In this document: positions 47,188 through 64,000 of the stretch, piece after piece | Layout of the letters: each line of letters starts with the position of its first letter | How positions within the stretch are numbered: the stretch's first letter is position 1 | Origin: Bacteroidia bacterium Ga0077558 | GTDB taxonomy: Bacteria > Bacteroidota > Bacteroidia > Chitinophagales > Chitinophagaceae | Direction: 5' to 3' | DNA: 64,000 nucleotides | Assembly: GCA_001464625.1 (NCBI GenBank) | Contig: LNFJ01000094.1 | Coordinates: 22,215 to 86,214 of the forward strand | The notes under the pieces: generated by a model | What the model was told of the DNA's origin: nothing | What the model saw: the letters and a program-made list of their open reading frames with translations, nothing else | Database searches by the model: none | Made by a program: the position numbers and the translations under genes

Positions 47188-50100
47188 TTACCAAACAACC
47201 CAGTTAAATTCTATATTCTCTCTTCTTGAAACAGGTCGTTGTTTGCCTTTCGTTAATTCGCTAACCTTTTTACTAACATAGTTTTTTAACTCTGCTACAT
47301 CCACCCTTCTGTCAGCATTGCCACCATCCCTATCAGCCATCACTTCTTCTATTCCTTTTCGAATGCAATAAGTAAATACGCCATTGTTCCATTTTTCAGA
47401 TTCAAAAGCATATTCCATTCCACCGGCAGCAGAAATGACAATAGCACCATTACCTGCTGAAATATCTGCAAATAAATTTTGCATAACCTCATAAGAACTG
47501 TTAGCATCTACAGCTGCTTTTTTATCTTTTACAATAAGCCCTCTTGATGCAAATCCTGATACGGAGCCATTATCCGTAGCCGTATCTTTTATAGTCGTTA
47601 TCTTGTTTTGTTGCGCAAGCATCTCTTCCTTATCTAATGCACCGGAATGGCAAGCATCAATTAGCAATAATTTCTTTCTTGCAGGTATTCCATCCAGTAA
47701 GGCTTCCAGGTCTTCATACTTCAAACCTTTTTGAGTTGGCTTTTTAAAATCAATATCATACGTAGCATAATAAAAATCAAGACTATCGCTTAGTAAGCCA
47801 TGTCCATTTACGGAAATAATTACTTTGTCATTAACGGTCGTCTTCATTAATTTTTCCCGGAGAGCTAATATGTTTTCTTTAGTTGCACGACTATCAATCA
47901 ATGTATCTGCTTCAAAATTTGATTTAAATATTTTTCCGAAAGATGTAGCGAGGTCCCGAACATCTTTGGCCGCAAACCGAAGATTCATCGATGTGTCTTT
48001 ATAATTGGAAACAGCGATTCCAATAAAATAAGTTTTGGCAGGAGTGGGAGGTTTGTAGCTGCTGCTAATTTCTATTGTTTCTGTTAGGGAGATGGCACCT
48101 TTACTATTGGTGCAAAACACTTTCACTAGATTTTTATCTGTAGAAAGGGGCACTTTTACTTTCAGTGTAGTTCTATTTGCATTGCTTGAAATGACTTTTC
48201 CTGCTGTTCCAAAAACAGGGCTGTTATTTACCAAAACCTGTAGTGATTGCAGCGGATATTTTGCATCATAACATTCTATCTCCATTTCATACTCACTTAA
48301 TGATGTTGCGGGTTTTACTGTAAACCGATCTTTTAATCTAACAACGGGCAAATGAACATCATCACCTAATGAGCTTTCAGTAATATCCAGCTTCTTCAAT
48401 CTTTTTTTGTACGCAGCATAATAGGAAGTGATGAGGCTGCTATCTGCTCTGCCAAGTTGCTTCAATACTAGATCAGGCCTGTTAAAACGGGTATCAAACT
48501 GTTCAAAACCGTAACTGTTATTATTCAAATTGAACGTCACGGCATCTAAGGTATTTTTTGGAGCCAGGTAATTGCCTTTACTATCAGCGATCATAAAATC
48601 TTTGCCTCTGGGAGTAAAAATGGTTGCTATTTTATTGCCAGTAGCTAAATCATACATATTCACTTTACAATCAAAGCCACCGGTTGCTAAAGTTTTATTA
48701 TTATGGCTAATTGCCATCATCCCATTTTCATAGTCATGGTCGTACTTTTCGTAAAGCACTTTATCTGTTTTCGTATCGAGTGTAACAAACTTGTCGGCAA
48801 TTTGAACTACGAGATAGCGGTAGTCGTATGACATTACTGAGTTATAACAAAGCTTTTTGTCCTTATATACTTTTATTTTTTTCAATAATTTTAGCGTAGT
48901 CGCATCATATTTATATACTGCCCCATCTCCGCCAGGAACATAAATAAACTTTGGTGTTATTTCGAGTGTCAAAGCATCTTCTGTCATAATACTGTCCAGA
49001 ATATTTCCGTTTTTTACATCAATTATTACTATCCTGTTCAATATCTCTCTTGCAAAAAGTCTTTGCCGTATACTATCATACCTAAGTGCAGAATATCCTT
49101 TCAAAATTTTATTTTTACTTTTATTATAAACATGGCTAAATATTTTTTTATAAGTTGCCAGTTCAAACCCTGCAATCGTTCCGTTATCGCCTCCTAAAAA
49201 CACATATCGATTATCCGCTGACAATTCGAAATGGGTAAGCTTCTCCGTAGCATCGGGTAAGCTAACCTTGCCAACAAATTCTTTTTTTGTATAGTCGTAA
49301 AATTTAAGCGAAGGAAGCTCTGTATCTGTGTAAATCCCTATATTTTCATTATTAAGCAGTATATAATTATTTTGAAACGACAACGCACCGAAGTATAGGA
49401 ACGATGTGCTTCCATTTTTTAAATTCACTTTTGATACTCCGTCATGAACAATTGCCAGCTCATTGTCGTCTTTTGTAAATTGAATATTTAGCGGAAGAGT
49501 ATAATATGTTTTTATATCCTTATGGCTTAGAGAAGAATTAGATTCAAAATCCCAATTCGAAAAATTAAAAATGCGAATGGGGCCTCCATCAGCTAGTCGT
49601 CCCGCTAAGTAGTTGCCATCCGGGCTAAATTTAACATCAAAAAGTCCATAGCCATCAGCAGAGCTATATAGATAATTTCTTTCTTTTAAGGTTGCCAAGT
49701 TAATAATGCATAGACTATCGGCACCTAATGCTAGTGCAAGTGTTTTACTATCGGCACTAAATGAAGGTGTGGCATAAGTGCCCCAGGAGCCGTTGCTTTT
49801 TGCATGCGCTTTAATTCTAAAATATCTTTTTTTGTTTTCCAGGTCCCATACATTCACCAAGCTATCGGAAGTAAGACTGCACATATATTTTCCATTGTTG
49901 CTAACCCAAACACCTATTACCCTACTTCTTTCTTTGTACCGCCGGTCCCAGTCTCCTGTTTCTAAGTCCCATTTATATACCAAACTGTCAGATCCACATG
50001 AAAAAAGCACCGTACTATTTGCAGGCGAAAAGGCAAGCCCGGTTATGGAGGCATTGTGTACTTGCAGTAAAGTTTTTGCAATTGCACCAGTACTTATGTC

Positions 50101-51942
50101 GTAAAATTTAATTAATGAATCTCTTCCTCCGGCTACTAGTTGTTTACTATCCGGCGTAAATATTACAGCCATCTCTGGCCGCCTTGTATTTATTGTTTTA
50201 ATCAAAGAGTAATCATATGCATTCCATATTTTTATTGTGGAGTCGTAGGAAGAGCTTACCAGGTAACGTCCATTTGGACTATATTGTAAAGCATAAATAT
50301 CACTTGTGTGGGCCGTAAAAGTTGAAATTTCTCTACCCAATGTCACATCCCATATCTTAATAAATTTATCATAGATCCCACCAGTAGCCATAAATCTGGA
50401 GTTGGGCGAAATAGCAATGATATAAGGAAACAAATGTCCCGTTTGAACGGATACTTTTATTTGTTCACTGCTGCGGAGATTAGCAATAGCACTGATTGCC
50501 CATCCTTCGCCTTCTTTATTGCCTGATTGTATAAACTGTGCCAGCGATTTTTTGAAAGAACTATCAGCTTTTTTATAATTACCTAATTTTTTTTCGGTAA
50601 AGCCGGTAAGATAATTTGCCCATCCTTCATTCAGTTTATCATTTAAAGCAAAGCTGGCATCCTGAATCAACTGTGCCATGTATTGTGCAGAGTCTATATT
50701 GTCTGCATTTGCCATCAGCATACCTTCATTGAACCATCTTACAATAAGTTCGTTATCGGTAATATCTTTTGATAAATTTCCTGCCAATTTTTTTCTGATT
50801 ATAGAAGTTGGTTGTTTAATAAGAAAGGAACTAACCACTGCAGGATCCATAGGTGTATTATTAATAACCCAGGTGGCGTAAACTTCAGAAAATTTATAGG
50901 GTGTTCCCATATACTTTCTCGGAAATGCATTTACGAAATCTAAAAAGAGTTTTAAATGGTCATCTGTGCTATTGGCCATTGCCTTTATGATATTTTCTCC
51001 GGCAAAAATTCCTTTACTTCCTTTTACTTCTGCATAGCCACCGCCTGCAACAGTATCTTCTGCTAATATCCTTACCGCTTCATCAATCTGATTTTTCATT
51101 ATGCGGGCAATATCATTATTGGTAAGACTATCTGCATAGTAATACAAGTAGCGGGAATTATAAATCGGTTCCCGATAATTGTTTTGAAAATAAATTAAAC
51201 GATTTGCAGAAACACTAATAGCAAGATTTTTCCAGCTAACAGGTACTCTTGTTTTCAATTCAACCAAATCTCCGGGCAAAACTTGCAGTAAAGAATCATT
51301 AGTAGCATGTGCTATCGTGTAATTATTACCAACTTCCCTTGGATAACAGTTAACCAGTCCGTAGGGTCGTTGAACATCTTTTGATTCCCATTTTGAAATG
51401 ATGCCGCCTCTTTTTACCGAATCGGTAATTCCATCATATTTACCGGCTTGTATGGTAATACGAATTGAATCAGCAGAAATTACTTCCACTTTAGTGACCG
51501 GGTAAAAGATAGAGGTTTCTTCTGTTGCTGCAATTGCAGGATAGTTGAATAGCTGATTGTTAATACTGATGGAACGATGCAAATCATTTAATTCTATAAA
51601 AGCAGTTTCAATATCGATATCTATTCTGTTTGCACGGGACTGGCGTAGGGCAAAACTTAAAAATCGATGTGTATTTTCAGGATCTTCTTTTTTTTTGTAA
51701 CACCTTCCAATATTCAACATTACTTGTGCAGATAAAATATTGGTATAATTTTCCTGTTTGTTATTGCGAATCCATTGTAAAGCTCTAAGATTAATAACAA
51801 GCGATGAATCATAATTTTTAACAGCGTAAAAAGAATCAGCTTGAGAAACAAGGGAGTCCAGGTGTTTATATTCTTGTGCAGCGGCTTTTGGCAACAAAGC
51901 TGGCAGAAAAAGTAAGAAAATTATAAATCTGCCAATATGCAT
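47188..51942 (-). CDS. secreted multidomain protein: TPR-like N-terminus + WD40-type repeats + Ig-like linker + C-terminal caspase-like (C14) peptidase
   Basis: 1584 aa with signal peptide MHIGRFIIFLLFLPALLPKAAAQ. WD40-type units include FMATGGIYDKFIKIWDV, LVSSSYDSTIKIWNA and LVAGGRDSLIKFYDI. C14 blocks are YFIGIAVSNYKD, VIISVNGHG and LLLIDACHSG. Confidence 0.85.
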   Translation of the reverse strand: MHIGRFIIFLLFLPALLPKAAAQEYKHLDSLVSQADSFYAVKNYDSSLVINLRALQWIRNNKQENYTNILSAQVMLNIGRCYKKKEDPENTHRFLSFALRQSRANRIDIDIETAFIELNDLHRSISINNQLFNYPAIAATEETSIFYPVTKVEVISADSIRITIQAGKYDGITDSVKRGGIISKWESKDVQRPYGLVNCYPREVGNNYTIAHATNDSLLQVLPGDLVELKTRVPVSWKNLAISVSANRLIYFQNNYREPIYNSRYLYYYADSLTNNDIARIMKNQIDEAVRILAEDTVAGGGYAEVKGSKGIFAGENIIKAMANSTDDHLKLFLDFVNAFPRKYMGTPYKFSEVYATWVINNTPMDPAVVSSFLIKQPTSIIRKKLAGNLSKDITDNELIVRWFNEGMLMANADNIDSAQYMAQLIQDASFALNDKLNEGWANYLTGFTEKKLGNYKKADSSFKKSLAQFIQSGNKEGEGWAISAIANLRSSEQIKVSVQTGHLFPYIIAISPNSRFMATGGIYDKFIKIWDVTLGREISTFTAHTSDIYALQYSPNGRYLVSSSYDSTIKIWNAYDYSLIKTINTRRPEMAVIFTPDSKQLVAGGRDSLIKFYDISTGAIAKTLLQVHNASITGLAFSPANSTVLFSCGSDSLVYKWDLETGDWDRRYKERSRVIGVWVSNNGKYMCSLTSDSLVNVWDLENKKRYFRIKAHAKSNGSWGTYATPSFSADSKTLALALGADSLCIINLATLKERNYLYSSADGYGLFDVKFSPDGNYLAGRLADGGPIRIFNFSNWDFESNSSLSHKDIKTYYTLPLNIQFTKDDNELAIVHDGVSKVNLKNGSTSFLYFGALSFQNNYILLNNENIGIYTDTELPSLKFYDYTKKEFVGKVSLPDATEKLTHFELSADNRYVFLGGDNGTIAGFELATYKKIFSHVYNKSKNKILKGYSALRYDSIRQRLFAREILNRIVIIDVKNGNILDSIMTEDALTLEITPKFIYVPGGDGAVYKYDATTLKLLKKIKVYKDKKLCYNSVMSYDYRYLVVQIADKFVTLDTKTDKVLYEKYDHDYENGMMAISHNNKTLATGGFDCKVNMYDLATGNKIATIFTPRGKDFMIADSKGNYLAPKNTLDAVTFNLNNNSYGFEQFDTRFNRPDLVLKQLGRADSSLITSYYAAYKKRLKKLDITESSLGDDVHLPVVRLKDRFTVKPATSLSEYEMEIECYDAKYPLQSLQVLVNNSPVFGTAGKVISSNANRTTLKVKVPLSTDKNLVKVFCTNSKGAISLTETIEISSSYKPPTPAKTYFIGIAVSNYKDTSMNLRFAAKDVRDLATSFGKIFKSNFEADTLIDSRATKENILALREKLMKTTVNDKVIISVNGHGLLSDSLDFYYATYDIDFKKPTQKGLKYEDLEALLDGIPARKKLLLIDACHSGALDKEEMLAQQNKITTIKDTATDNGSVSGFASRGLIVKDKKAAVDANSSYEVMQNLFADISAGNGAIVISAAGGMEYAFESEKWNNGVFTYCIRKGIEEVMADRDGGNADRRVDVAELKNYVSKKVSELTKGKQRPVSRRENIEFNWVVW
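47191..48036 (-). other. caspase-like (peptidase C14) catalytic domain of the 1584-aa protein
   Basis: This is the last 282 residues. The His codon is at 47800-47802 and the Cys codon at 47650-47652; both were checked on the DNA. Confidence 0.8.
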
Positions 51943-52033: not shown

Positions 52034-55000
52034 TCATTTTAACGTTTCTGTGGCTTTGTCAACTACAGACTTTGTAAGCTGATTCAATTTGTCTTTAGTG
52101 CCGCTTATTTCGAACTTAGTTTTTATAGCTTTATTTTGCTTCACATTTACAGTTATTGTAATGCCGTCTCCTTTTACAGTATAACGTCCACTTAAGGAAT
52201 AGGCATCAGGAGAATTAGTAGCAGTTACATATACAATTTTGCTATCTGATCCCCTTGTTGCCAATTCATTTAATTGGAGATTAACCATTCTGCTAAATTC
52301 CAAATCATCATCGGCAATAGCCTCATCGCTATTTTGAAAATTACTGGCAGCGAACAATGGTTTCTCTTGTGGCAAAATAATTTTAGCCATTACTTCCTCA
52401 TCAACCACCCCGATATTAAAATTGGTATTGGTAACAACTTGTGGTTCCTGTCTTGCACCATTTTCTTTTGAGAGCTCTGTCACTGTTTTTTCAGCGGCAT
52501 TAAACCAGCGGCTTACATTCAGGTATTTGCCATCTTCTAATATATCCGGTTGTTGCTTAATTGCTTTTAGTAAAGAATAGGTAAGTAGACCCTGCGAATA
52601 TCTCCCCATCTCATAGGCACTTTGATTACTTGCCGAAGCGGAGAGTATAAACAAACCAGATTTTTCATTTAGTTTATCTATTGCTTTTACCTGTTGCGCT
52701 GCATCATCATCTCTCGCTGCCATATAATTTTGCTCATCAGCACCCATTTTTACAAAATCTTTAATGGCTTGTCCACTATTGCAAGCATCAAATATTAGAA
52801 TACGTTTTTGAGCTTTTATATTTTGTGGCTTCATCCATTCGGTAAGTTCTGCCGTGCTGATGCCAACATCGGCAACCGCACTGCCAGCAGTTAAAGATGA
52901 AGCATCTGCGGTTAGAAAATAAAATTGCTTTTGTTCCCCTTCCATTACCCCATGACCTGCAAAGAATATCAGCAGAATATCATTGGCAGTAGCCTTTTTG
53001 CCTATTTCTTCCAGCGTTTTTTTGATACTGTTCTTTTCAGGTAGCTGGTATCTTTCTTTAGCGGTGGTGAGATTATACATAAACACATGTTCTTTATTAT
53101 CTGTGTTTAATAATTTTTTAGCTGCATTGGAAACCGCAGCAGAAATATCAGTAGCATCTTTAGCGGCATATTTCAGATCCAGTTCGTCTCCTTTGTAATC
53201 GCTTACGCCAACCATTACTGCATACAAGTTAGGTGGAGTAGTAGCCTGACTGCTTTTATCTTCTTTTACTTTAAATCCACGGGAGGATATTGTATTGTCT
53301 GTTGTAAATGCTTTTACTGTTACCTGGTTTTCTACACCAGCAATAAAATAAGGGCTGAGTTCAGTTTTTCTTATAATCAACTCATAGATGTTACCATTCA
53401 TTTTTAATTGTGCAGGCTTATATGTTTTGGTAGGATTTCCATTAATGGAAAGAATTGTTTCTCCCAATCCTCCGCGGCGGGGAATTATTTTAAAATAGTA
53501 TTCATCTGCTTTGCTGCTGGCATCTTCAATTTCAGGTGTAAGGCCACAAATACTTAACTGCTCTAATGTTTTTGCATTAATGCTATCGCCACTGGTAATC
53601 CTTTCAATTAGATTAGGAACCCACAATTGATTTTTTGCCTGGTCCAATTCTATCACTTCTTCTCCGCAAACAAAATAGAGCATTTTACGGGCAGCTTCAG
53701 TTCCATCATACCGTCCAAAATTATCTTGTACTAAAAAATCTGTATTGCCAGTAACAAAATGTTTGTAAGCCAATTTTACCTGGGGTAGTGTGTACACTTC
53801 CAATGCGTCATCAGTAAACACATAGAGATATTTGCCAGATTTTCCATATGTAATTTCATTGCCTTTAAGTTTTAGTACCGTTGCTCCTGATAATAAGTTG
53901 TGTATTCTAATATTGTCGCCAGAATGTACCACCAGGATTTCATTACTTACAAAATGAAACTCTATGCCTTTTCCTGGTTCATTGAGTTTTGTAACAATAG
54001 TTTCCTCAACATTGACTATAGGTGTTGTCACAATTTTCCCATTCGCATATATTAGTTTCAGTTCGTTTTTATTGGCTGTAAAACCAGCATAATTTATATC
54101 ACTCAAGGTTGTAACCAATTTTCCTGAAACTGTTTCCCAAACCTGCAAAAGTGATTCGTTGTTATCAAAACATAGGAAATATTTTGAGTCGGAGCTCATT
54201 TCTATGGTATGCGGATAAGCTGTTCCCACGGTAACGGATTGAATTAGCTCTTGAGTGGCTACCGACCAGATTTTTACTTTATTACTTCCTCCCGTAATAA
54301 TATACGCACCATCAGGACTGAACCGTTGTTCCGTAAACATGCTAATACTATCAATAGTCAACAACCGTTTATTGTCAGACAATCGAACAAGCTGCACTGT
54401 AAAATTATCATCGTGTAAAACATATTTTCCATTGGGGCTAAACTTGCTGAATGATTCATATGATCCTGATGCATCGCTTAGTGTTGTTTCATCACCCCCT
54501 TCTGCATTAAAAACAACACTACTGGCTCTTCCGCCTGCTACTACAAAAAGGCTATCATTAGCACTAAAATCTACACTGGTGGCCCACTGATTATTAAATA
54601 GTTTTTTGTGAAAAACAATTTTGCCAGTAGCTGCTTCCATTTTTCGTACTACACCATCTCTTGAAGCAGTCAAAATGTATTTTTCATCTTTAGAAAGTTG
54701 CAGCGCAGCGAGCCGTTCATTATGTGAACCATAAGTCAGTTCTTTTTTTCCTGTTGTGGCATTCCAACGGCTTAAAACAGGGTCGTAGTTTCCGGCAAGA
54801 ATGCTGTTGCTTTTTTTAAGATAGTTTAGAAAAAAGAGAGATTCATTTCCTGATTGGAAATAGAAAGCCAATTTATATGTATCAATATCCCAAACACTGC
54901 AATACCCACTTTTATCTGCAAGAGCAAAAGTTTTTTTGTCGGGAGAAACTCGTATTTTATAGATCCAGTCTTTATGGTTTTCTATAGCGCCAACAAAGTT

Positions 55001-55819
55001 GCCAGTCTGTTTATTCCATATCCTCGCAGAATTATCGCTGGATGAAGAAATTATATTACCATCGGGAAGAAATTTTGCATTCCAAACAGTATTCGTATGG
55101 CCGCTATACTCCACTAATTGTTTGCCGGTTGCAGTTTCCCAAAGCCTGGCTGTAGAATCATCTGCTGCAGTTAGTAATTCAATATCATTATCGGAAAATT
55201 CTACATCAATTACCCGGCTTCGATGGCCTGCGAGGGAAGCTGAAAATTTTCTTTGTTCTATGTCCCAAAGTTTTATGGTAGCACCTCCATACAAAGCAAG
55301 CATTTTACTATTGTTGCTAAACTTTAGTTCGTCATTAAAATAAGTCTGTGCAATGGTATCGGCTAATTGTAGAGTAATGGCGTTATATATTCTTATACTA
55401 GATCCACCTTTTTCGCCATAATATTGACCACAAATCGCAATCCATTTACCGTCTGTACTTACAGCAAGTCCCGGAGAGAAATCATAGGTCCCTAAAATTG
55501 TTGATTTGCCTGTTCCAATATTGTAGACTTCTGCAGGCGTAAAACCTGTAATAACAAGGTTCTTATTATCTGCAGTAAAGGCCATTTCGGTGGGATTACC
55601 ACGATTAAGGCTTGCTAATAATTTTCCGGTTGCCGTTTCCCATATTTTAATTTTTCCATCCAAATCACCCGAAGCAATTAATTTTTCATTTGGACTTATG
55701 GCAACAGCTTTAATCTCATTGCCATTAGCACTGGGGAGTATCAACTCGGGTTGTTGTGCCAATAAATGAGATATACAAAGCACACTACAAACCAGGGAAA
55801 TTAACTTGAAACCTCGCAT
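52034..55819 (-). CDS. secreted multidomain protein: WD40-type repeats + Ig-like linker + caspase-like (C14) peptidase + C-terminal beta-rich extension
   Basis: The start is placed at the ATG giving MRGFKLISLVCSVLCISHLLAQQ; the listed ORF start at 55864 is a TTG inside the promoter-like unit. WD40-type units include LIASGDLDGKIKIWETATGK, LLTAADDSTARLWETATGK and IISSSSDNSARIWNKQTG. C14 blocks are LYAVMVGVSDYKG, LLIFFAGHG and ILIFDACNSG. Confidence 0.85.
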   Translation of the reverse strand: MRGFKLISLVCSVLCISHLLAQQPELILPSANGNEIKAVAISPNEKLIASGDLDGKIKIWETATGKLLASLNRGNPTEMAFTADNKNLVITGFTPAEVYNIGTGKSTILGTYDFSPGLAVSTDGKWIAICGQYYGEKGGSSIRIYNAITLQLADTIAQTYFNDELKFSNNSKMLALYGGATIKLWDIEQRKFSASLAGHRSRVIDVEFSDNDIELLTAADDSTARLWETATGKQLVEYSGHTNTVWNAKFLPDGNIISSSSDNSARIWNKQTGNFVGAIENHKDWIYKIRVSPDKKTFALADKSGYCSVWDIDTYKLAFYFQSGNESLFFLNYLKKSNSILAGNYDPVLSRWNATTGKKELTYGSHNERLAALQLSKDEKYILTASRDGVVRKMEAATGKIVFHKKLFNNQWATSVDFSANDSLFVVAGGRASSVVFNAEGGDETTLSDASGSYESFSKFSPNGKYVLHDDNFTVQLVRLSDNKRLLTIDSISMFTEQRFSPDGAYIITGGSNKVKIWSVATQELIQSVTVGTAYPHTIEMSSDSKYFLCFDNNESLLQVWETVSGKLVTTLSDINYAGFTANKNELKLIYANGKIVTTPIVNVEETIVTKLNEPGKGIEFHFVSNEILVVHSGDNIRIHNLLSGATVLKLKGNEITYGKSGKYLYVFTDDALEVYTLPQVKLAYKHFVTGNTDFLVQDNFGRYDGTEAARKMLYFVCGEEVIELDQAKNQLWVPNLIERITSGDSINAKTLEQLSICGLTPEIEDASSKADEYYFKIIPRRGGLGETILSINGNPTKTYKPAQLKMNGNIYELIIRKTELSPYFIAGVENQVTVKAFTTDNTISSRGFKVKEDKSSQATTPPNLYAVMVGVSDYKGDELDLKYAAKDATDISAAVSNAAKKLLNTDNKEHVFMYNLTTAKERYQLPEKNSIKKTLEEIGKKATANDILLIFFAGHGVMEGEQKQFYFLTADASSLTAGSAVADVGISTAELTEWMKPQNIKAQKRILIFDACNSGQAIKDFVKMGADEQNYMAARDDDAAQQVKAIDKLNEKSGLFILSASASNQSAYEMGRYSQGLLTYSLLKAIKQQPDILEDGKYLNVSRWFNAAEKTVTELSKENGARQEPQVVTNTNFNIGVVDEEVMAKIILPQEKPLFAASNFQNSDEAIADDDLEFSRMVNLQLNELATRGSDSKIVYVTATNSPDAYSLSGRYTVKGDGITITVNVKQNKAIKTKFEISGTKDKLNQLTKSVVDKATETLK
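52421..53230 (-). other. caspase-like (peptidase C14) catalytic domain of the WD40-caspase protein
   Basis: The His codon is at 52952-52954 and the Cys codon at 52781-52783, both checked on the DNA. A further ~120-aa unassigned C-terminal domain is encoded at about 52037-52390. Confidence 0.8.
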
Positions 55820-55833
55820 CAGCAAATTTTTTG

Positions 55834-55880
55834 AAAAATTACCACTATTAGCATGCTTTTCCAATACCGTATGCAGGGTA
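55834..55880 (-). promoter_or_regulatory. promoter-like unit B (TACC-N8-GGTATTGG-N19-TAATTTTT)
   Basis: The minus strand reads TACCCTGCATACGGTATTGG aaaagcatgctaatagtgg TAATTTTT, ending 15 nt before the ATG at 55819. Units A and C have the same geometry. Confidence 0.55.
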
Positions 55881-55947: not shown

Positions 55948-56331
55948 TTAACAGTAGTACCAATATTTGTACCAGTAGCAATAGCCATAGCCATCGCAAT
56001 AGTAATACCAATAGTAGCAAAGTCCGGCACGGGATGCTTCCGGAGCTTTATACTTTTTTTGAAAAGCTTTTACTGCAGCAGCAAGTGATTTTGCATTAGC
56101 AGCTGTCAATGTTTGACCGGCTTTGTAAGTTGTTCCGCCAACTGTAGCTTCAGGAGAACCGCCACGGTTTGCGTCAAGACTCGCATTAGATACCATGCTT
56201 AAAAAGCCGATATCGCTGTCAGTTAAAGTTGTGCCTGCCTTCATAGCAGATACTGTTTTTTCTGCCTGGCCAAATACTACTGATGCCATCAGCAGCAAAG
56301 AGGCCGAGAATAAGAGTTTAATCTTTTTCAT
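55948..56331 (-). CDS. small secreted protein with extreme Tyr/Trp/Cys-rich C-terminal tail
   Basis: 127 aa with signal peptide MKKIKLLFSASLLLMASVVFGQA. The tail LCYYWYYYCDGYGYCYWYKYWYYC was verified codon by codon at 55951-56019. The gene has its own terminator and an upstream promoter-like unit. Confidence 0.6.
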   Translation of the reverse strand: MKKIKLLFSASLLLMASVVFGQAEKTVSAMKAGTTLTDSDIGFLSMVSNASLDANRGGSPEATVGGTTYKAGQTLTAANAKSLAAAVKAFQKKYKAPEASRAGLCYYWYYYCDGYGYCYWYKYWYYC

Positions 56332-56526: not shown

Positions 56527-56573
56527 TAAAGTTAGTAGTGGAATAACCTGTTTTCAATACCCAATAGCAGGTA
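56527..56573 (-). promoter_or_regulatory. promoter-like unit C (TACC-N8-GGTATTGA-N19-TAACTTTA)
   Basis: The minus strand reads TACCTGCTATTGGGTATTGA aaacaggttattccactac TAACTTTA. It lies 20 nt downstream of the stop of the 744-aa gene and about 195 nt upstream of the small-protein ATG. Confidence 0.45.
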
Positions 56574-56593: not shown

Positions 56594-58828
56594 TTATTTT
56601 TCTTTTGTAGGGATGAAAATAAATTCACTAAAGGCGTCTGTATTTCCAAAATCGGCCATATGAGGCGATATTTTTAGGGTAGCGGTTTCATTGAGGCTGG
56701 CGGTCTGCAATACAGCATTAATATCGCCCAATGTAACAATACCGTTGGAACCTTCACCTTTTGCCCGTAGCACCTGTAACAGAAGGTTGGCAAACGGCGA
56801 ATGGCGGCCAGCTTTACCATCAAATGCAGGTTCGCTGCCGACAGAGGATAAAAATTTTCGGGTACGGAGCGGTAATTTATCTTTTAAAAACTGCAGCACA
56901 TTTTTATTATTTATATTGGTAGTGGTTGTTTCCCTTTTTGCATTGTCAAAAGCTTTGGCATCAAAAGTGCCGCCGTGGCAAACATCCAGCAACACCAGTA
57001 CCTGCCTGGCTGGAATATTATTCAGCATTTTTTGCAGCTTGGCATAGGGGATATAGGTGTTACGAACCGGGTCGTCATCAATTGACCGGGAGTCTGTACA
57101 AACTATAAAACCATCATCCAGCAATTCATTATCCACATCACCGTGGCCAGCAAAATAAACCACCAGTTGATCATTAGGTTGTGCAATACGATAGTATTCC
57201 CTGATGGCCTTATAAATACTGTCCATGGGTTTGTCTTCTAATAATTGTACATCAAAGCCGTAGGAGTTGGATAATTCATCAGCTACTGCACGGGCATCTT
57301 TTATAGGGTTGCTGAGTTTATTCCATCCTTTGCCTTTATAATTATCGGTACCTACAACAAGGGCATATTTTTTGGCGGTCAGATTAGTTAATGTTTGCTG
57401 AAGTTCCTTTGGTTTTACCTTCATTCCTCTAGTGTCACTCTCTCCATCACCAAATATTTCTTTGTAATCCTGCAAAAATTTTTTCTCAAAGAAAATATCA
57501 AAATAGTCGTAGGGGAACGACTTGCAGGTATATTCTTTATCTTTTATAGAGAAAGCTATTTTTGCTGCCTTGCTATCATCTCGGAATATATCATAAATGT
57601 TGTACGTGGTATCCAATGAAGTTATATAATAATTAATAGGACCTTTCCTGATGGTTTCTCCATTACACCCTACAGCATCCATCCCAATACGATTGGGGAA
57701 AATGATAATACGGTTTTTGTTGAGAAGACTTGCAACAGTAGGAGAGTTTCTCATTAATGTTTTTACAAACTCAGTTTTAAACTTTTCTTCAGTACCAGTT
57801 TCGGAAATAAAGAGTTGATTATTAGCAGGTATAATCTGGATGTACTCTTGGAGGACGTTTATTGAAATAAGATCATGGTTAATTTCCTCAATAAGATCTT
57901 TATGCTTACTGCTATTTCCAAAGAGTTCTCTTTTGTAGCCTTTTTTTTGGTAGGGGAAAAAATAGGTAACCTTGTTACTGCTTGAGTCGAGCACAAGAGG
58001 AAAACTATGGCCGTTATAATTCAGAATAAAATAATCATTTGCCGAAGATTTAGCGGCGATCTCCTTTAACGCATTAATAATTTTTTCTTTTGTGGCACCA
58101 CTATCAAGCAATGTATATTCATTATATAAAGTTTCGGAAATCTCATTACCAACCACTTTATCTAGCTGCTCTTTAAAAAAAGTTGAATAGGACTGGGCAT
58201 CGGACTTGCAGTTTGTCAAATACATAAGGGCGCCTGAATATTTATCAATACCAATTGATAATACCCAAACTGAACCGATGGAGTATTTATTTCTGTCTGA
58301 GGCATTGTATACTTGGTTAAGTCTTAGCAATGATGATAGTGATCTATTGGGAACATTCGATTCTTTAATTTTTTGCCCATAATTAAGGATAAATTTATCG
58401 ATTACCTTCTTAGAATCATAAGTGACAATTTTCATCAGGGTGTTGTTAAGAACATAAGCCTGATCGGTAAGTTGAAATTCATTATCAAACTGCCATACGC
58501 TATCAATTGAAATAGTGTTTTTGAAAATCAACCTGTATGCTTTTACTCCACCCCTTGTAGAGTCTATAAAGCCTTTCAAGTTGATTATAGTATCATTTTT
58601 TATAAATTTTTCCATCCATTTAGCGGACGAATAATACATGCCAGTACCAACAATATAAATTTGGGAAGGGTTGTGTTTTTTTAATGTTTCCGGATATTGA
58701 TGTGCTGCCAACACATAAGTTGTAGGTCTTAGAACACCAGGATTTCCTAAAGAATAATTACTGAAAAACAACCCGTTAACCAGTAATATGGCAACCACAA
58801 GGTTCGCTTTACAAATATGTAAATTCAT
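56594..58828 (-). CDS. secreted protein with degenerate caspase-like module followed by an intact caspase-like (C14) peptidase domain
   Basis: 744 aa with a hydrophobic leader. The C-terminal C14 blocks are YALVVGTDNYKG, LVVYFAGHG and VLVLLDVCHGG. The upstream module has WVLSIGIDKYSG and FILNYNGHS, but reads LFISETGTEE where the Cys block is expected. Confidence 0.8.
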   Translation of the reverse strand: MNLHICKANLVVAILLVNGLFFSNYSLGNPGVLRPTTYVLAAHQYPETLKKHNPSQIYIVGTGMYYSSAKWMEKFIKNDTIINLKGFIDSTRGGVKAYRLIFKNTISIDSVWQFDNEFQLTDQAYVLNNTLMKIVTYDSKKVIDKFILNYGQKIKESNVPNRSLSSLLRLNQVYNASDRNKYSIGSVWVLSIGIDKYSGALMYLTNCKSDAQSYSTFFKEQLDKVVGNEISETLYNEYTLLDSGATKEKIINALKEIAAKSSANDYFILNYNGHSFPLVLDSSSNKVTYFFPYQKKGYKRELFGNSSKHKDLIEEINHDLISINVLQEYIQIIPANNQLFISETGTEEKFKTEFVKTLMRNSPTVASLLNKNRIIIFPNRIGMDAVGCNGETIRKGPINYYITSLDTTYNIYDIFRDDSKAAKIAFSIKDKEYTCKSFPYDYFDIFFEKKFLQDYKEIFGDGESDTRGMKVKPKELQQTLTNLTAKKYALVVGTDNYKGKGWNKLSNPIKDARAVADELSNSYGFDVQLLEDKPMDSIYKAIREYYRIAQPNDQLVVYFAGHGDVDNELLDDGFIVCTDSRSIDDDPVRNTYIPYAKLQKMLNNIPARQVLVLLDVCHGGTFDAKAFDNAKRETTTTNINNKNVLQFLKDKLPLRTRKFLSSVGSEPAFDGKAGRHSPFANLLLQVLRAKGEGSNGIVTLGDINAVLQTASLNETATLKISPHMADFGNTDAFSEFIFIPTKEK
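56597..57373 (-). other. intact caspase-like (C14) domain of the 744-aa protein
   Basis: The His codon is at 57143-57145 and the Cys codon at 56978-56980, both checked on the DNA. Confidence 0.8.
57629..58273 (-). other. degenerate caspase-like module (catalytic Cys apparently lost)
   Basis: Residues ~186-400 show the same block order as a C14 domain (IGIDKYSG ... NYNGHS ... hydrophobic strand). There is no Cys at the position aligned by eye. Confidence 0.45.
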
Positions 58829-58844: not shown

Positions 58845-58891
58845 AAAAGATATAACTATAAAGACATTCTTTCAATACCCAGCAGAGGGTA
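58845..58891 (-). promoter_or_regulatory. promoter-like unit A (TACC-N8-GGTATTGA-N19-TATCTTTT)
   Basis: The minus strand reads TACCCTCTGCTGGGTATTGA aagaatgtctttatagtta TATCTTTT, ending 17 nt before the ATG of the 744-aa gene. Confidence 0.55.
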
Positions 58892-58921: not shown

Positions 58922-58986
58922 GCTATAATAAAAAGGTTCAGGCAACTTCTTTTGGCCGTATAATGTCTGAGAAAGGTATTTTAATA

Positions 58987-61449
58987 ATGAAACGGAATAG
59001 CATTTTCATATTATTGTTTTTATTGGGCTGTTTTTTGCAGGCCATGGCACAGCCTGATGAACGGGGTTTTAAAAAAGCAGGCGATACCGCAACAGCAAAG
59101 GGTAATGTATATGCTATTATCGTAGGCATCAGCGATTATAAATTGGTACCCGATCTACAGTATGCAGATAAAGATGCACAATCATTTGAAAGTTTTCTAC
59201 TGAGTGATGGCGGCGGCAAAGTGCCGGCCACCAATATTGAAACGTTTTTGAATGAAAATGCAACCCGTACCAATGTGGGAGATGCCATTTCGGTATTGGC
59301 CCGTAGGGCCAAACCTGGCGACAGGGTGTATTTCTTTTTTGCCGGGCATGGTGATATGGAAGATCTGACTCAAATTGAAAATGGATTGTTACTATTACAC
59401 AATAGTCCCAATGGAAATTATTTTGGTATGAATGATGATGTGCTGGAAATTTTAGATCTAAAAAGATATTTATCTCCATTAGCACAGCGGGGAGTTGAAA
59501 TGATATTTATTGTGGATGCCTGCCACTCCGGGAATTTAAAAGGTGGGGTAGAAGGAGTGTCACAAACAGCATCTGCCCTTACCGCTGCTTGGGGCAAAGA
59601 GTATAAAATTCTTTCTTGCCAACCCAATCAGCTTTCCCTGGAGAGCTCCGAGTGGGGTGGAGGCAGAGGCCTTTTTTCGTTGCAACTGGAAGAAGGATTG
59701 AAAGGCCTAGCAGATATGGATAATAATGGAACGGTTAGCATGTTTGAATTACAGAGCTATATTCAATCCAATGTGGCAAAATATAGCGAGGGAAAACAAA
59801 TTCCCTTAGTTACCGGCGATTTAAGTAAACCAATTTGTAAAGTTAACCCTACCATACTTGCAGCACTAAAATTAGAAAAGGCTAAGAATTATCCCATACT
59901 TGCATCTGCTAATACAAAGGGTAATGATGATAAATATGTTGATTCGCTGGACCCTGCCGGGAAGAAATTATATGCGTCTTTTAAAAATAATATTGCCGAA
60001 AAAAGGTTGGTCGCACCAACAGATACCAATGCATTCAGGGATTATCGTTTGTTTGAAAAAAGCTATCCGGCCAGTCCGCTTGTAGTACAGATGCGGCGCA
60101 ACCTCGCTGCCGTATTAAATGAGAAGTTTAATGGCATTGTATCTCCTTTATTAAAAGGACAAAGAAGCTATTCTTCAAGGGAAGAATGCGGATTGGTGGC
60201 AGTCGAACTGGATAGTTCGATGCAATTACTCGGTAGCCAGCATTATATGTACACCAACATTAAAGCCCGCAAATTATTCATGGATGCGATGGCTCTTACC
60301 TGGGCCTTATCGGAGAATGAATATAATATCTATATGAAGCCTGCGGTAGAAACATCAATCAAGTTGTTGGAACAATCGGAACTATTGGAGCCGAATGCAG
60401 CTTATACTTTGGATGCATTAGGCATTCGTTATATATTCTTGTATGAGAATGATAAAGCAACAAAAGCTTTTCAAAAATACCTTGATCTGCGGCCCAATGA
60501 TTTAATGGCTCGTTATACCTTGGGTATTACTTATACAAACTTAAAAATGTATGATAATGCAGAAAAAATATTTGAAGAGCTTTTGAAAGAAAATCCGGGA
60601 TGGCTGGAGCTAGGAGTAAAATTGTCAGATGTTTATCTTAACAACAAAAAGTCTAAAAACGCATTAGCTATTATCAATACAATTATCGATACCTCTACTT
60701 TATATAAGGGGAATGGATATTTTTTTAAAGGAGTGTACTATTCCAGGAATAGTATGACGGACAGTGCCATCTACTATTACAATCTTGCTAAAAAGGAAAT
60801 GGGGGCTTGTGATATTTGCGATAATAACATCGGGCATAATTATTTTGTGAATAACCAGTTGGACTCTGCCAGGAAATATTTCAAAAAACTTTTGGAGATT
60901 GATAGCCTGAATGTGTTTGCCAATTTTAATATGGGTACCATTGAAGTATTGGAAGGTGATATAACTAAAGCTTTTCAGTCATTCGTTAAATCGGCCGTAT
61001 ATGCACCTGCATTTCTGGAAGGTTATGTAAATAATCTTCAACTATATTTTGGTAAAACATATACAGCAACAGACGAAAAGGAGTTTAAACAATTTAAAGA
61101 AATACAGTATATTTTTAATATGCAGTACTTGTCCTACTTATCTATCTTGTATGGATATATTCGGGATTCTGCATTGTTGTATAAAGGAACCGGGGTGCAG
61201 TATTTTTTTGATCAGGCCTTTGTTTATAAACAACATGATTTGTACACATGGTATCATCATGCCTGTTACAAATCGCTAATAAAAGAAAAGCAGGCTGCAT
61301 TGGCAAGTTTGGAAAATGCGTTACGTCTTGGCTATGGAAATTATTTTACACTTCTATATGATGCGGATCTTTCATTTATTCGCAATACTCCGGAGTTTAA
61401 AAAACTCATCCAGAAATATTTCCCCAAAGAATCTGCTGCTGCTAATTAA
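58987..61449 (+). CDS. secreted caspase-like (C14) peptidase fused to C-terminal TPR repeats
   Basis: The start is placed at MKRNSIFILLFLLGCFLQAMAQ; an upstream ATG at 58963 is also possible. C14 blocks are VYAIIVGISDYK, VYFFFAGHG and IFIVDACHSG. TPR-like 34-mers run from about residue 430 to 720, e.g. AFQKYLDLRPNDLMARYTLGITYTNLKMYDNAEKIFEELLKENP. Confidence 0.85.
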   Translation: MKRNSIFILLFLLGCFLQAMAQPDERGFKKAGDTATAKGNVYAIIVGISDYKLVPDLQYADKDAQSFESFLLSDGGGKVPATNIETFLNENATRTNVGDAISVLARRAKPGDRVYFFFAGHGDMEDLTQIENGLLLLHNSPNGNYFGMNDDVLEILDLKRYLSPLAQRGVEMIFIVDACHSGNLKGGVEGVSQTASALTAAWGKEYKILSCQPNQLSLESSEWGGGRGLFSLQLEEGLKGLADMDNNGTVSMFELQSYIQSNVAKYSEGKQIPLVTGDLSKPICKVNPTILAALKLEKAKNYPILASANTKGNDDKYVDSLDPAGKKLYASFKNNIAEKRLVAPTDTNAFRDYRLFEKSYPASPLVVQMRRNLAAVLNEKFNGIVSPLLKGQRSYSSREECGLVAVELDSSMQLLGSQHYMYTNIKARKLFMDAMALTWALSENEYNIYMKPAVETSIKLLEQSELLEPNAAYTLDALGIRYIFLYENDKATKAFQKYLDLRPNDLMARYTLGITYTNLKMYDNAEKIFEELLKENPGWLELGVKLSDVYLNNKKSKNALAIINTIIDTSTLYKGNGYFFKGVYYSRNSMTDSAIYYYNLAKKEMGACDICDNNIGHNYFVNNQLDSARKYFKKLLEIDSLNVFANFNMGTIEVLEGDITKAFQSFVKSAVYAPAFLEGYVNNLQLYFGKTYTATDEKEFKQFKEIQYIFNMQYLSYLSILYGYIRDSALLYKGTGVQYFFDQAFVYKQHDLYTWYHHACYKSLIKEKQAALASLENALRLGYGNYFTLLYDADLSFIRNTPEFKKLIQKYFPKESAAAN
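59104..59832 (+). other. caspase-like (C14) catalytic domain of the caspase-TPR protein
   Basis: The His codon is at 59347-59349 and the Cys codon at 59521-59523, both checked on the DNA. Confidence 0.8.
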
Positions 61450-61562
61450 AAGTAGCTTAGCACCTTGCTAATAATTTCATTAAGGTTTATTTAACTGCGT
61501 CACAAGTGTAATTTCGGTTACAACAGTATCTTCTTGTGTATAAACACACCAAAAGCACTGTT

Positions 61563-62096
61563 ATGAAACGTTATACTTCTCTTCTTATAGTATTTTTACT
61601 TTCTTATTCAATAAGCTTCGCAGATGAAATTGCCTTTGAAAAAAATGCCAGCTGGGCAGATGTAAAAGCCAAGGCTAAACGGGAGAACAAAATGATATTT
61701 TTTGATGCCTATACTGCCTGGTGTGGCCCTTGTAAATACCTGGAAAAAAATGTGTATACAGATGCAGGCGTAGCTGCTTATTACAACCAATACTATATAA
61801 GCGTAAAGTTTGATATGGAAAGGGGAGAAGGTATAGAGTTGGCTAAAGAATTTTCTATTGACTCATACCCTACATTATTATTTTTTACTGCAGATGGCAA
61901 ACTGGTTCATAAATATATAGGAGCAACTGATGTGGCAGGGTTTAAAAGCCTTGGTGAAAATGCGGCAGATCCTTCTAAACAATATATAGTAATGAAGGAG
62001 CAGGCTGCCAGTTTAGCATTAGCTGATGCTGCATTTACCAAATGGGCATTCCAGGCAGAAAGGTTACAAGATGGGAGATATAGGGAAAATCATTAG
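61563..62096 (+). CDS. thioredoxin-fold protein (secreted), possibly the N-terminal part of a frameshifted longer gene
   Basis: The start is placed at MKRYTSLLIVFLLSYSISFA. The motif is FFDAYTAWCGPCKYLE (CGPC). The ORF ends in a helical segment that continues in the +1 frame (see findings). Confidence 0.75.
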   Translation: MKRYTSLLIVFLLSYSISFADEIAFEKNASWADVKAKAKRENKMIFFDAYTAWCGPCKYLEKNVYTDAGVAAYYNQYYISVKFDMERGEGIELAKEFSIDSYPTLLFFTADGKLVHKYIGATDVAGFKSLGENAADPSKQYIVMKEQAASLALADAAFTKWAFQAERLQDGRYRENH

Positions 62097-62757
62097 GACA
62101 TACTTAGCAGGAAAGGATGATCTTCTTGCCAATAGAGATGTAGCTATTACCGCATTGTTGCAGGCGCCAGAACTTACCGACACTCAGTTGAATTATTTAA
62201 TAAATAATCCTGCCCGAATCGGCGAATTGTTGAAGCTTGATGCCCCGCAAACCGCTTCTTTGTTATACAAAAGAATTTTTAACCAGGCAATGACTGTTTA
62301 CCAAAGAAGCGGCCAGCAAGTAGATTCTTTTGCCATAGTTATACAAAAATATGCTCCTGCAAATTGTGAGTATGCAATGAAAGATATGTTGTTTAAAGAA
62401 GCTTTGCGGGCCGATAAAGATATAAATAAGGCAACTGCTTTATTAATAGAATATATTGATGATAAGAAAGCTCCCGTAGACATTGCAGCAATAGCTGGTT
62501 GGTTTGAGGAATTATCGGCAGTGATTGATAAAGAAAATTCACAACGGTTAATTAATAAGCTTACCAGTTTTGTATTACAGGAAAGTGATAAAGGAAAAGA
62601 ATGCTATCTGTTCCTTATTCAAATGAGTTGCTATAATACTATTGGCGACAAGGCTCAGGCAAAAACGTATGCTTTGAAAGCTTATCATGCTAAAGAATTG
62701 CCAGAAGAATATAAGGAAATGCTTAAAGCAACATGGGGCTTTACTGATTCTCAATAA
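62071..62757 (+). CDS. helical (TPR-like?) protein, or the C-terminal part of the upstream thioredoxin-fold gene
   Basis: The ORF is open from 62026 and the first plausible ATG is at 62071 (MGDIGKIIRTYLAGKDD). It overlaps the upstream ORF by 26 nt in a different frame. Composition is all-helical. Confidence 0.5.
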   Translation: MGDIGKIIRTYLAGKDDLLANRDVAITALLQAPELTDTQLNYLINNPARIGELLKLDAPQTASLLYKRIFNQAMTVYQRSGQQVDSFAIVIQKYAPANCEYAMKDMLFKEALRADKDINKATALLIEYIDDKKAPVDIAAIAGWFEELSAVIDKENSQRLINKLTSFVLQESDKGKECYLFLIQMSCYNTIGDKAQAKTYALKAYHAKELPEEYKEMLKATWGFTDSQ

Positions 62758-63086
62758 TCCAGGTCATAATGAATTGCTCATTAGCTACACTATTATAAAT
62801 ACCCATAAATGGGTATAGTTTTCCGCTTATTTAGCAGCTAAATTGTGTAAATAATGAAATCTTCAAAAACAGCTGGCTTATTTAATACAAAAAGGAAAGT
62901 AACTTTTTTTTCGGGGTATACAACTTTTCAGACTCTGATCCAATCAATACTAGCGGTTCGCAGGATTATGTTGGTTGTTGTCCCCAAAACACTTTATATT
63001 AGTACTTAACCAGTCTCTCAGATGGTTTTTACAAATAAAGGCATTAAAATCGTAAAAAGTAACCACCAATCTCTAAAATAAAGGCA

Positions 63087-64000
63087 ATGTCAAAACATTT
63101 TATTATCACTGCATTGGCTCTCGTTATTACCAGCCTTGCCATGGCGCAAGAAAAAAGAGCACTTATTATTGCTATCGATCAGTATGAGCCACCAACAAAT
63201 TATAAACCCGCCAGTACTGCAAGGTCAAATTTCAGAAATTTAGATGGTTGTGTAAATGACGGCCGTTCTATGCAATCTGTTATAGTTTCCAAATTTCAAT
63301 TTGATGCAGGCAATGTGGATACCTTGTATAACGATGCTGCAAACAGAGCTGCCATTCTTAAATCAATGAATGATTTATTAGCTGAAAGTAAAGCCAATGA
63401 TATTGCGTTTATCTATTATGCCGGACACGGAAGCCAGGTGCCTAACAGCCTTGCAAAGGAAGCAGATAAAAAAGATGAATCAATGGTGCCTAGTGATACC
63501 TATAAAGAAGGAGTGGAGGACATCCGGGATAAAGAACTGGCTAAAATCTTTAATGCTTTTATAGATAAAGGAGTAAAGCTAACGGTGATAATGGACTGCT
63601 GTCATAGTGGATCACTTTCCCGTGGTCCAAATGCTCCCGGTAAATCAAGGTTTATTGCTGATGCAAACTATGATGCTAAAGATGCTTCACAACCAGTGCC
63701 GCCAGAAACAAGATCAGAAGGAAATTTTCTTATAATCTCTGCAGCACAGGATAATGAATTTGCACAAGAGCAGCGGGATGAAAATAATATTCCCCGTGGC
63801 GCCTTCACTATTGCTTTAACCCAGGCTTTGGAACAACAATCTGTAAATGCATCGGTAATAAATTTATTTACCAGTTTGCGGGCCATTTTAAAAAGTAATG
63901 GAAAGAAACAAGAACCTGTATTGGCCGGTAAGCCAGAAAGACAACAACAAACATTGTTTGGTATTGAAAAAGGAACTCTTCCGGATAAATCATTAGTTGC
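63087..64000 (+). CDS. secreted metacaspase-type (C14) peptidase, 3' end cut by window edge
   Basis: This gene is not in the ORF track because no stop codon falls inside the window. My translation is MSKHFIITALALVITSLAMAQEKRALIIAIDQYE...IAFIYYAGHGSQ...LTVIMDCCHSGS... The His codon is at 63426-63428 and the Cys codon at 63600-63602. Confidence 0.8.
   Translation, partial: MSKHFIITALALVITSLAMAQEKRALIIAIDQYEPPTNYKPASTARSNFRNLDGCVNDGRSMQSVIVSKFQFDAGNVDTLYNDAANRAAILKSMNDLLAESKANDIAFIYYAGHGSQVPNSLAKEADKKDESMVPSDTYKEGVEDIRDKELAKIFNAFIDKGVKLTVIMDCCHSGSLSRGPNAPGKSRFIADANYDAKDASQPVPPETRSEGNFLIISAAQDNEFAQEQRDENNIPRGAFTIALTQALEQQSVNASVINLFTSLRAILKSNGKKQEPVLAGKPERQQQTLFGIEKGTLPDKSLV

Follow-up and report, generated by a model that had tools for sequence, protein, structure and literature searches.

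An exported Bacteroidota orthocaspase-type protease with a fused pseudo-caspase domain and a putative acidic pocket

Introduction

Pseudo-enzymes fused to active paralogues are a recurring regulatory solution. In protease clan CD, such dead/live pairs are known structurally from separase and Csx29, two intracellular proteins of the CHAT/C50 branch. Here we describe a candidate for a comparable pair in the C14 (orthocaspase) branch, encoded in a 64,000-nucleotide stretch of DNA (hereafter the window) from Bacteroidia bacterium Ga0077558, a member of the Chitinophagaceae (assembly GCA_001464625.1, contig LNFJ01000094.1, positions 22,215 to 86,214). The reading frame 56594..58828, on the reverse strand of the window like all features of this gene given below, is open and codes for 744 amino acids. 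The protein consists of a signal peptide, then a beta-rich domain (N), a central domain (M) and, at its C-terminal end, a Peptidase_C14 domain (C). On sequence grounds the protein is a C14 orthocaspase-type protease with an N-terminal pseudo-caspase domain, and we refer to its gene as the M-C gene.

The two closest described designs share the order of a dead and a live domain with this protein, but differ from it in other respects. Separase (MEROPS C50) carries a dead caspase-fold domain, PPD, directly N-terminal to the active one, APD, in a single polypeptide (as cited in PMC10028731), and it cleaves after Arg (PMC4357240). In contrast to the M-C protein, separase is a eukaryotic protein of the cytosol or nucleus, with a very large helical N-terminus and securin as its regulator. 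Csx29 (TPR-CHAT, from Craspase, a type III-E CRISPR system) combines a pseudo-caspase, CHAT1, and an active CHAT2 in one chain, resembling separases, and so offers a bacterial example of the pairing (PMC10028731). Unlike M-C, it is cytoplasmic, CRISPR-associated, fused to TPRs, activated by RNA and a member of the CHAT sequence family.

Other caspase homologues have also lost their catalytic residues. Pseudo-orthocaspases are prokaryotic C14 homologues that, like M, lack the His-Cys dyad and are yet conserved; their main hosts are Cyanobacteria and Alphaproteobacteria, and in Bacteroidetes they proved rare, at only 10 pseudo-variants in 1078 sequences (Klemencic et al., 2019, PMC6426788). They stand alone and typically carry Tyr/Ser in place of His/Cys, whereas in M, which is joined to a live domain, Gly takes the place of Cys. 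In FLIP(L)/caspase-8 and TbMCA4/MCA3 (PMC7586951, PMC3220528), a dead caspase paralogue works with a live one, but the partners are separate polypeptides. In a large survey of prokaryotic caspase homologues (PMC3501461) we saw no sign of tandem dead/live C14 domains, and within the literature that we searched, and within that literature only, we found no description of the M-C architecture. By analogy, M-C may work like the separase/Csx29 design without being a member of that family.

The C domain has the hallmarks of a live protease

The original prediction held that the C-terminal 259 residues form an intact C14 domain, and this is borne out. Domain C, of orthocaspase type (56597..57373, residues 486-744), matches Pfam PF00656 over residues 486-694 with 86.7 bits against a cut-off of 21.4 (E 2.4e-24). 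Both catalytic blocks, G561-H562-G563 and D615-x-C617, are invariant in 109 full-length homologs and in 98 clusters of the wider family described below, and the codons first proposed for His562 (57143-57145) and Cys617 (56978-56980) are exact. The predicted structure of C, compared with VIA, resembles metacaspase 4 (6w8r_A, Z 21.2 over 214 residues at 3.0 Å) and MALT1 (3v4o_A, Z 21.1).

The likely specificity of C can be read from two acidic residues, Asp511 (codon 57296-57298) and Asp615 (56984-56986), which align to Asp95 and Asp211 of TbMCA2. Such residues have been tied to specificity for Arg or Lys at P1 in metacaspases (PMC4357240); Asp511, too, is invariant in the 109 homologs and the 98 clusters, and C is probably Arg/Lys-specific at P1. 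In NCBIfam, C scores below cut-off for 'caspase, EACC1-associated type' (87.5 against 140 bits), and neither M nor the complete architecture is represented by a model. The match of the protein to CHAT (PF12770) stays below threshold as well (E 0.27, 11.1 bits against a cut-off of 24). By sequence membership, then, the protein falls outside CHAT/C50: its live domain is Pfam Peptidase_C14, that of separase CHAT/C50.

The M domain is predicted to be a complete caspase fold

Domain M (57455..58273, residues 186-458) is only marginally visible to routine methods. Pfam finds Peptidase_C14 a second time in the protein, at residues 188-277 in addition to 486-694, with 23.5 bits against the cut-off of 21.4 (E 5e-5); this match covers profile positions 3-83, the first third of the profile, and annotation pipelines therefore say just 'caspase family protein'. 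BLASTP of M against C is equally marginal (E 0.005, 24% identity over 89 residues), so that profile and structure methods were needed.

We searched for homologs of the protein and obtained 173 matches; among the 120 listed, nearly all are 720-750 residues long, and those with names are metagenome-assembled genomes of Chitinophagaceae, Chitinophagales and Sphingobacteriales. An alignment of 38 homologs was split into N, M and C sub-alignments. With these, hhalign aligns M to C with a probability of 90% (E 1.5e-6, 159 columns), placing G273-H274-S275 on G561-H562-G563 and E343-T344-G345 on D615-V616-C617. The M profile finds metacaspases among the sequences of the PDB (TbMCA2, E 0.006, an alignment that likewise supplies the register) and, in its own genome, the neighbouring WD40-caspase gene (E 2.9e-8).

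Structure prediction gives a concordant picture. The AlphaFold2 (AF2) model of M alone has a mean predicted local distance difference test (pLDDT) of 83.7 and a predicted template modelling score (pTM) of 0.85. In VIA it matches the orthocaspase-like GSU0716 (3bij_A, Z 17.9, 202 residues, 3.2 Å), Arabidopsis metacaspase 4 (6w8r_A, Z 17.7) and MALT1 (3v4o_A, Z 16.8), with caspases-8, -3 and -9 following at Z 14.6-15.4. The structural matches span residues 180-454, that is, both the p20-like and the p10-like half. Foldseek agrees (E 1e-9, probability 1.00), and the ESM-Atlas neighbours of M are all PF00656. The top structural neighbours are the same proteins for M (Z 15-18) and for C (Z 18-21): GSU0716 (3bij), AtMC4 (6w8r), Yca1 (4f6p), TbMCA2 (4af8) and MALT1. 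Unlike M-C, GSU0716, the metacaspases and MALT1 are single-domain proteins with an intact dyad and no tandem dead copy. As modelled, M is a complete caspase fold.

These results substantiate the earlier proposal that residues ~186-400 form a second caspase-like module. The register proposed by eye is the one returned by hhalign, with the quoted blocks falling at residues 188-199 (WVLSIGIDKYSG), 267-275 (FILNYNGHS) and 339-348 (LFISETGTEE), and Z scores of 16.8-17.9 to caspase-fold structures speak against an unrelated fold.

M has lost the catalytic dyad and kept residues of a putative S1-like pocket

At the position of the catalytic Gly-His-Gly, M reads G273-H274-S275 (58004..58012), and at that of the Asp-x-Cys block E343-T344-G345 (57794..57802). 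The nucleophile is gone throughout: the Cys position is Gly345 in all 109 full-length homologs, in keeping with the original observation that no Cys stands where the D-x-C-H-S-G block would be expected and that LFISETGTEE aligns there instead. The His is a different matter. Although the block order is indeed repeated in M in the register first proposed, the His of 'GHS' is no family feature: it occurs in the window protein and its closest relative only (2/109), the other homologs having Q, C, F, Y, R, I, L and others at position 274, with Tyr in 12 of the 109. To judge from this distribution, the 'GHS' of the window protein is an accident of lineage and no remnant under selection, and M is a domain without a catalytic dyad.

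Other parts of the old active site have been retained. In the hidden Markov model (HMM) alignment, M positions 207, 210, 272 and 343 are the equivalents of TbMCA2 Cys92, Asp95, Ser156 and Asp211 (numbering corrected for a 20-residue tag and checked against Ser156 and His158), which have been proposed as the S1-pocket residues of that metacaspase (PMC4357240). The first two lie in C207-K-S-D210 (58199..58210), the equivalent of the metacaspase Cys92...Asp95 S1-pocket helix. Asp210 is present in 109/109 homologs, as are Glu343 and Gly273, while Cys207 is found in 99 and Ser272 in 96 (Asn in the window protein); the acidic pocket residues are common to M and metacaspases. Asp265 is invariant in M, as is Gly273. 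Conservation within the domain is highest, at a column identity of 0.87-0.90, in the loop that now stands in for the Cys block and in the helices after this loop.

M is predicted to dock on C, not as in a caspase dimer

The AF2 model of the full-length protein (pTM 0.79) suggests a defined multidomain arrangement. When M and C were submitted as two separate chains, their predicted complex reached an ipSAE of 0.78, while the best of three controls gave 0.00; by calibration counts that hold only roughly here, this mark is reached by 58 of 80 solved complexes and by 2 of 110 mismatched pairs. The docking runs share at least 82% of their contacts, the pLDDT of the partners is at least 83, and the predicted interface is large, with about 100-118 contacts.

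On M, the confident contacts fall at residues 255-263 (the end of alpha2), 317-334 (alpha3 and its flanks) and 360-370, the last lying in the helices that take the place of the cleavable loop after beta4. On C they fall at 672-676 (the conserved loop after beta5), 678-689 (alpha4), 691-694 and 698-718 (alpha5 and the next loop). No confident contact involves beta6, either in M (443-447) or in C (723-726), although residues outside the confident set may touch as well. These are the strands whose pairing, beta6 to beta6, creates the 12-stranded sheet of a caspase dimer (PMC4357240); FLIP pairs through that canonical interface, and the M-C prediction differs. The models support a fixed unit in which two sandwiches are stacked face to face, rather than a caspase-type pseudo-dimer. 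The idea of an intramolecular pseudo-caspase/caspase pair, with which the original prediction had started, thus survives in the predicted contact (ipSAE 0.78 against 0.00), but not in its dimer geometry, the contacts being on helices with none on beta6.

A conserved Arg-Gly motif in the linker

M and C are joined by a linker (57374..57454, residues 459-485) that is predicted to be disordered (pLDDT below 50 at 461-472) and is otherwise variable in sequence. Within it, Arg467 is invariant in the homolog alignment and Gly468 at least 90% conserved (57425-57430). The motif extends to the wider family: 94 of the 98 M-C clusters contain [ST]-R-[GS] within the equivalent 32-residue window, at a median distance of 22 residues ahead of the first strand in C, where a share of about 14% would be expected from the dipeptide frequency elsewhere. 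Because C carries the acidic residues that go with basic P1 specificity in metacaspases, the motif is a candidate processing site, and Arg467-Gly468 is likely to be the site of maturation.

A further basic residue occurs within C itself. The near-invariant Arg632 (56933-56935) sits in a disordered loop, residues 626-642, after Cys617. This is where caspases and type II metacaspases are processed into p20-like and p10-like parts, and the Arg632 loop may be another candidate site.

The pairing of M and C defines a wider family

To see how far the pairing extends, the M profile was searched against 1.84 billion cluster representatives, which gave 84 matches at E <= 1e-30 and 327 at E <= 1e-10. 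Among the best 150 matches, 147 were new and were scored with our own N, M and C HMMs. These 147 contain 98 clusters (at most 50% mutual identity) in which a full-length M is followed by a full-length C. The commonest form is a signal peptide directly followed by M and C (~545-600 residues); the N-M-C form of the window protein measures ~710-750 residues, and extended forms of ~830-870 and ~1040-1125 residues carry an N-terminal extension. Some of these extensions are a third caspase-like domain, as in P0144 (residues 24-282, PF00656 E 8e-15) and P0129 (276-492, E 3.5e-7), which mostly retains half a dyad, either SGHG without DxC or DxCHSG without GHG. The named members of the family are Bacteroidota. 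Strong M matches are rare among species-representative genomes, being found in 3 of 201 from the same family and in three of the four genomes sampled from the genus itself.

The division of labour between the two domains is maintained across this range. The C dyad is intact in 98/98 clusters. In M, the Cys position is occupied by Gly in 88 clusters and by Cys in 5, position 274 is mostly F, Y, I, V, L or M and is His in 5, and position 343 is acidic in all 98 (E in 86, D in 12). In a phylogenetic tree, the M and C sequences are split by a single branch with a support of 100, and their pairwise distances correlate (r 0.74, Mantel p ~0.001). Such a pattern agrees with a single ancient duplication or fusion that was passed on as a unit, although much of the correlation arises from shared ancestry alone.

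We also considered whether the M domains that retain the Cys might be basal, as expected from a stepwise decay. In the FastTree phylogeny rooted on C they are nested and on long branches, and we make no claim either way. A distant relative, P0232 (565 residues, locus L004:8001-9698), has both 'SGH' and 'DAC' at the dyad positions of M and, from these motifs, may be a tandem live/live form; it too sits on a long branch.

Export signal and N domain

The protein starts with a probable signal peptide (58745..58828, residues ~1-28), in which a stretch of low confidence comes after a hydrophobic helix: in the AF2 model a helix spans residues 5-22 and pLDDT is below 50 at 23-32. A hydrophobic N-terminus is present in all aligned homologs, and in the short relatives M starts at residues ~24-45. 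The description of the protein as secreted stands as far as a predicted Sec-type signal peptide goes; no tail domain of the type IX secretion system (T9SS) was found in the protein.

Between signal peptide and M lies the N domain (58319..58732, residues 33-170), nearly all strands in the AF2 model, with pLDDT mostly 80-94. It is missing from most M-C relatives. It matches no Pfam or NCBIfam family and has no usable ESM-Atlas feature match; the sole fold match, a weak one, is the DUF3836 protein BDI_3222 of Parabacteroides (4r03_A, Z 7.4, 95/109 residues).

Possible function of the M domain

We propose that the protein is an exported multidomain cysteine-protease zymogen in which M would be a permanently attached non-catalytic partner, comparable to the pseudo-protease domain of separase or to CHAT1 of Csx29. 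The alpha2/alpha3 face of M and the helices replacing its loop would dock on the alpha4/alpha5 face of C and on its beta5-alpha4 substrate-loop region. The putative nucleophile-free, acidic S1-like pocket of M (Cys207, Asp210, Ser/Asn272, Glu343) probably binds a basic side chain, which could come from a substrate, making M an exosite, or from the protein's own linker. Cleavage at Arg467-Gly468, through the protein's own activity or that of a neighbouring caspase, would leave the two halves together. Taken as a whole, with M a fixed partner bearing an acidic pocket and Arg467 the site of maturation, this is a scenario in which we place somewhat more belief than disbelief. From it we infer a regulatory role for M.

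Several observations weigh against this scenario. The docked chains are the halves of one protein and were modelled with alignments of our own making, for which the calibration of the ipSAE of 0.78 is only approximate. The predicted interface is no more conserved than the rest of either domain (M 0.69 against 0.61, p 0.13; C 0.71 against 0.73, p 0.70; permutation). In the wider family, Cys207 of the pocket is kept in only 61 of 89 aligned clusters. Finally, the likeness to known dead/live pairs has so far been found domain by domain. In VIA, comparison of the whole model with all PDB representatives gave no two-domain alignment to separase, Csx29 or gingipain, only single-domain ones: with separase and Csx29 chains (9hvy_A, 5u1t_A, 5mz6_1, 7zoq_A, 7y9x_B) one domain was covered (152-169 residues), and the separase chains gave Z 8.1-8.7 over 152-162 residues. 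The match of Csx29 to M is weak (7y9x_B, Z 6.9, 161 residues).

Other explanations have to be weighed against the same data. M could be a large cleavable pro-domain, a chaperone and/or an inhibitor that leaves after the cut at Arg467, so that the mature enzyme would be C alone, in the manner of gingipain pro-domains. Clan CD enzymes are often inhibited by their own N- or C-terminal regions and activated by proteolysis (PMC4357240), the conserved Arg-Gly lies in a disordered linker exactly between M and C, and the predicted contacts of M include residues 672-676, in the beta5-alpha4 loop of C. We nevertheless find this explanation unlikely, if the most serious of the competitors: a departing pro-domain has no need of an invariant acidic pocket or of its best conservation at the old active site, the large predicted interface lies on the face of C opposite to the one that a simple active-site plug needs, and M and C have stayed paired in ~100 clusters while diverging in a correlated way. 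The conservation of M speaks in a similar way to the suggestion that it is a structural spacer or scaffold, a decayed duplicate retained for folding or stability, whose acidic residues are structural and bind no ligand. Asp265 and Gly273, classic structural positions of the fold, are invariant as well, no ligand or partner has been identified, and conservation at the interface is not raised. Yet conservation in M is strongest in the loop replacing the Cys block and the following helices (0.87-0.90), and the four proposed S1-pocket positions have mostly been retained, unlike the two catalytic ones, which makes a mere spacer distinctly improbable to us.

Less probable again are two further explanations. 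A canonical pseudo-dimer joined through beta6 into a continuous 12-stranded sheet, in which M would activate C as FLIP(L) does caspase-8, would be natural given that caspases and paracaspases need such dimers (PMC4357240) and that both domains have the complete fold, beta6 included; but in our models every confident contact lies on helices (M 255-263, 317-334, 360-370; C 672-718) and none on beta6, and we think this arrangement very improbable. The idea that M is still an enzyme, using non-canonical residues such as Cys207 or Ser/Thr342 with Glu343, receives the least credence of all. In the subfamily, the conservation of Cys207 reaches 90% or more, almost all members have Ser/Thr342 and Glu343 never varies, and a few distant relatives have the canonical Cys, P0232 even with 'SGH' and 'DAC'. 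Nonetheless, M has no conserved His or other general base at the site, most clusters having a hydrophobic or aromatic residue at position 274; about one third of the aligned clusters carry Ser, Ala or other residues instead of Cys207; and Gly is strictly conserved at the nucleophile position.

The pocket of M invites a more speculative step. M might be a protease-derived 'reader', whose acidic pocket captures either Arg467 of the linker, as a latch until the cut, or a P1-type Arg of a substrate. This we regard as a rather long shot. Were it true, a small exported neighbour with a Ser-Arg-Ala-Gly motif, described below, would be one candidate substrate, and the caspase island around the gene might be a periplasmic or extracellular cascade of peptide maturation or signalling that owes its specificity to pseudo-protease exosites.

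Our results suggest that the C14 branch reached, in exported Bacteroidota proteins, the same design as separase and Csx29, and that it did so in a large and strongly conserved family. Three features are diagnostic of it: a dead domain with Gly where the Cys would be, an acidic pocket kept in that domain and an inter-domain Arg-Gly motif. With these, annotators can recognise a second domain that Pfam only marginally detects. The family could serve as a tractable model, in bacteria, of how a dead caspase domain contributes to a live one, and it may help to explain the multi-caspase islands of Chitinophagales.

Genomic neighbourhood

In the window, the M-C gene belongs to an island of caspase genes. 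Two WD40-caspases (47188-51942 and 52034-55864) precede it, and a caspase-TPR gene with Pfam C14 and TPR matches (58963..61449, forward strand), divergent from the M-C gene, and a further caspase starting at 63087 follow. The 4.08-Mb genome has 12 PF00656 matches, six of them on the contig of the window. PADLOC returned only its generic caspase model and no CRISPR context was seen, so that nothing points to a known defence system. Three other assemblies (L001-L003) show the same divergent arrangement with the caspase-TPR gene, at 49-63% identity. Short relatives consisting of a signal peptide, M and C occur outside caspase islands, and the M-C module therefore seems to be self-sufficient.

The island also has a recurrent sequence signature. 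A TACC-N8-GGTA palindrome lies at 58876..58891, between the two divergent genes and 48 bp upstream of the M-C start codon, and three more copies are found in the window, at 55865-55880, 56558-56573 and 62800-62815. All four lie in intergenic DNA inside the caspase island; 0.44 copies would be expected, and none of 100 shuffles reached four. The distribution suggests co-regulation, with the palindrome as a candidate shared operator.

A small exported protein is encoded at 55948-56331 on the reverse strand. A gene for such a protein, of 127-128 residues, follows in two of the three assemblies L001-L003, as in the window (L001:12385-12768 and L003:12485-12871). The three copies, two of them nearly identical, share a conserved Ser100-Arg101-Ala-Gly directly before a tail rich in Tyr, Trp and Cys. 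This motif resembles the [ST]-R-[GS] of the M-C linker and is a possible cleavage site.

Two overlapping reading frames of 186 and 243 residues occupy 61536-62757 on the forward strand, in the stretch that separates the caspase-TPR gene from the next caspase. At the matching place, L001 has a single gene of 395 residues from the thioredoxin family, and the pair in the window may have been split by a frameshift.

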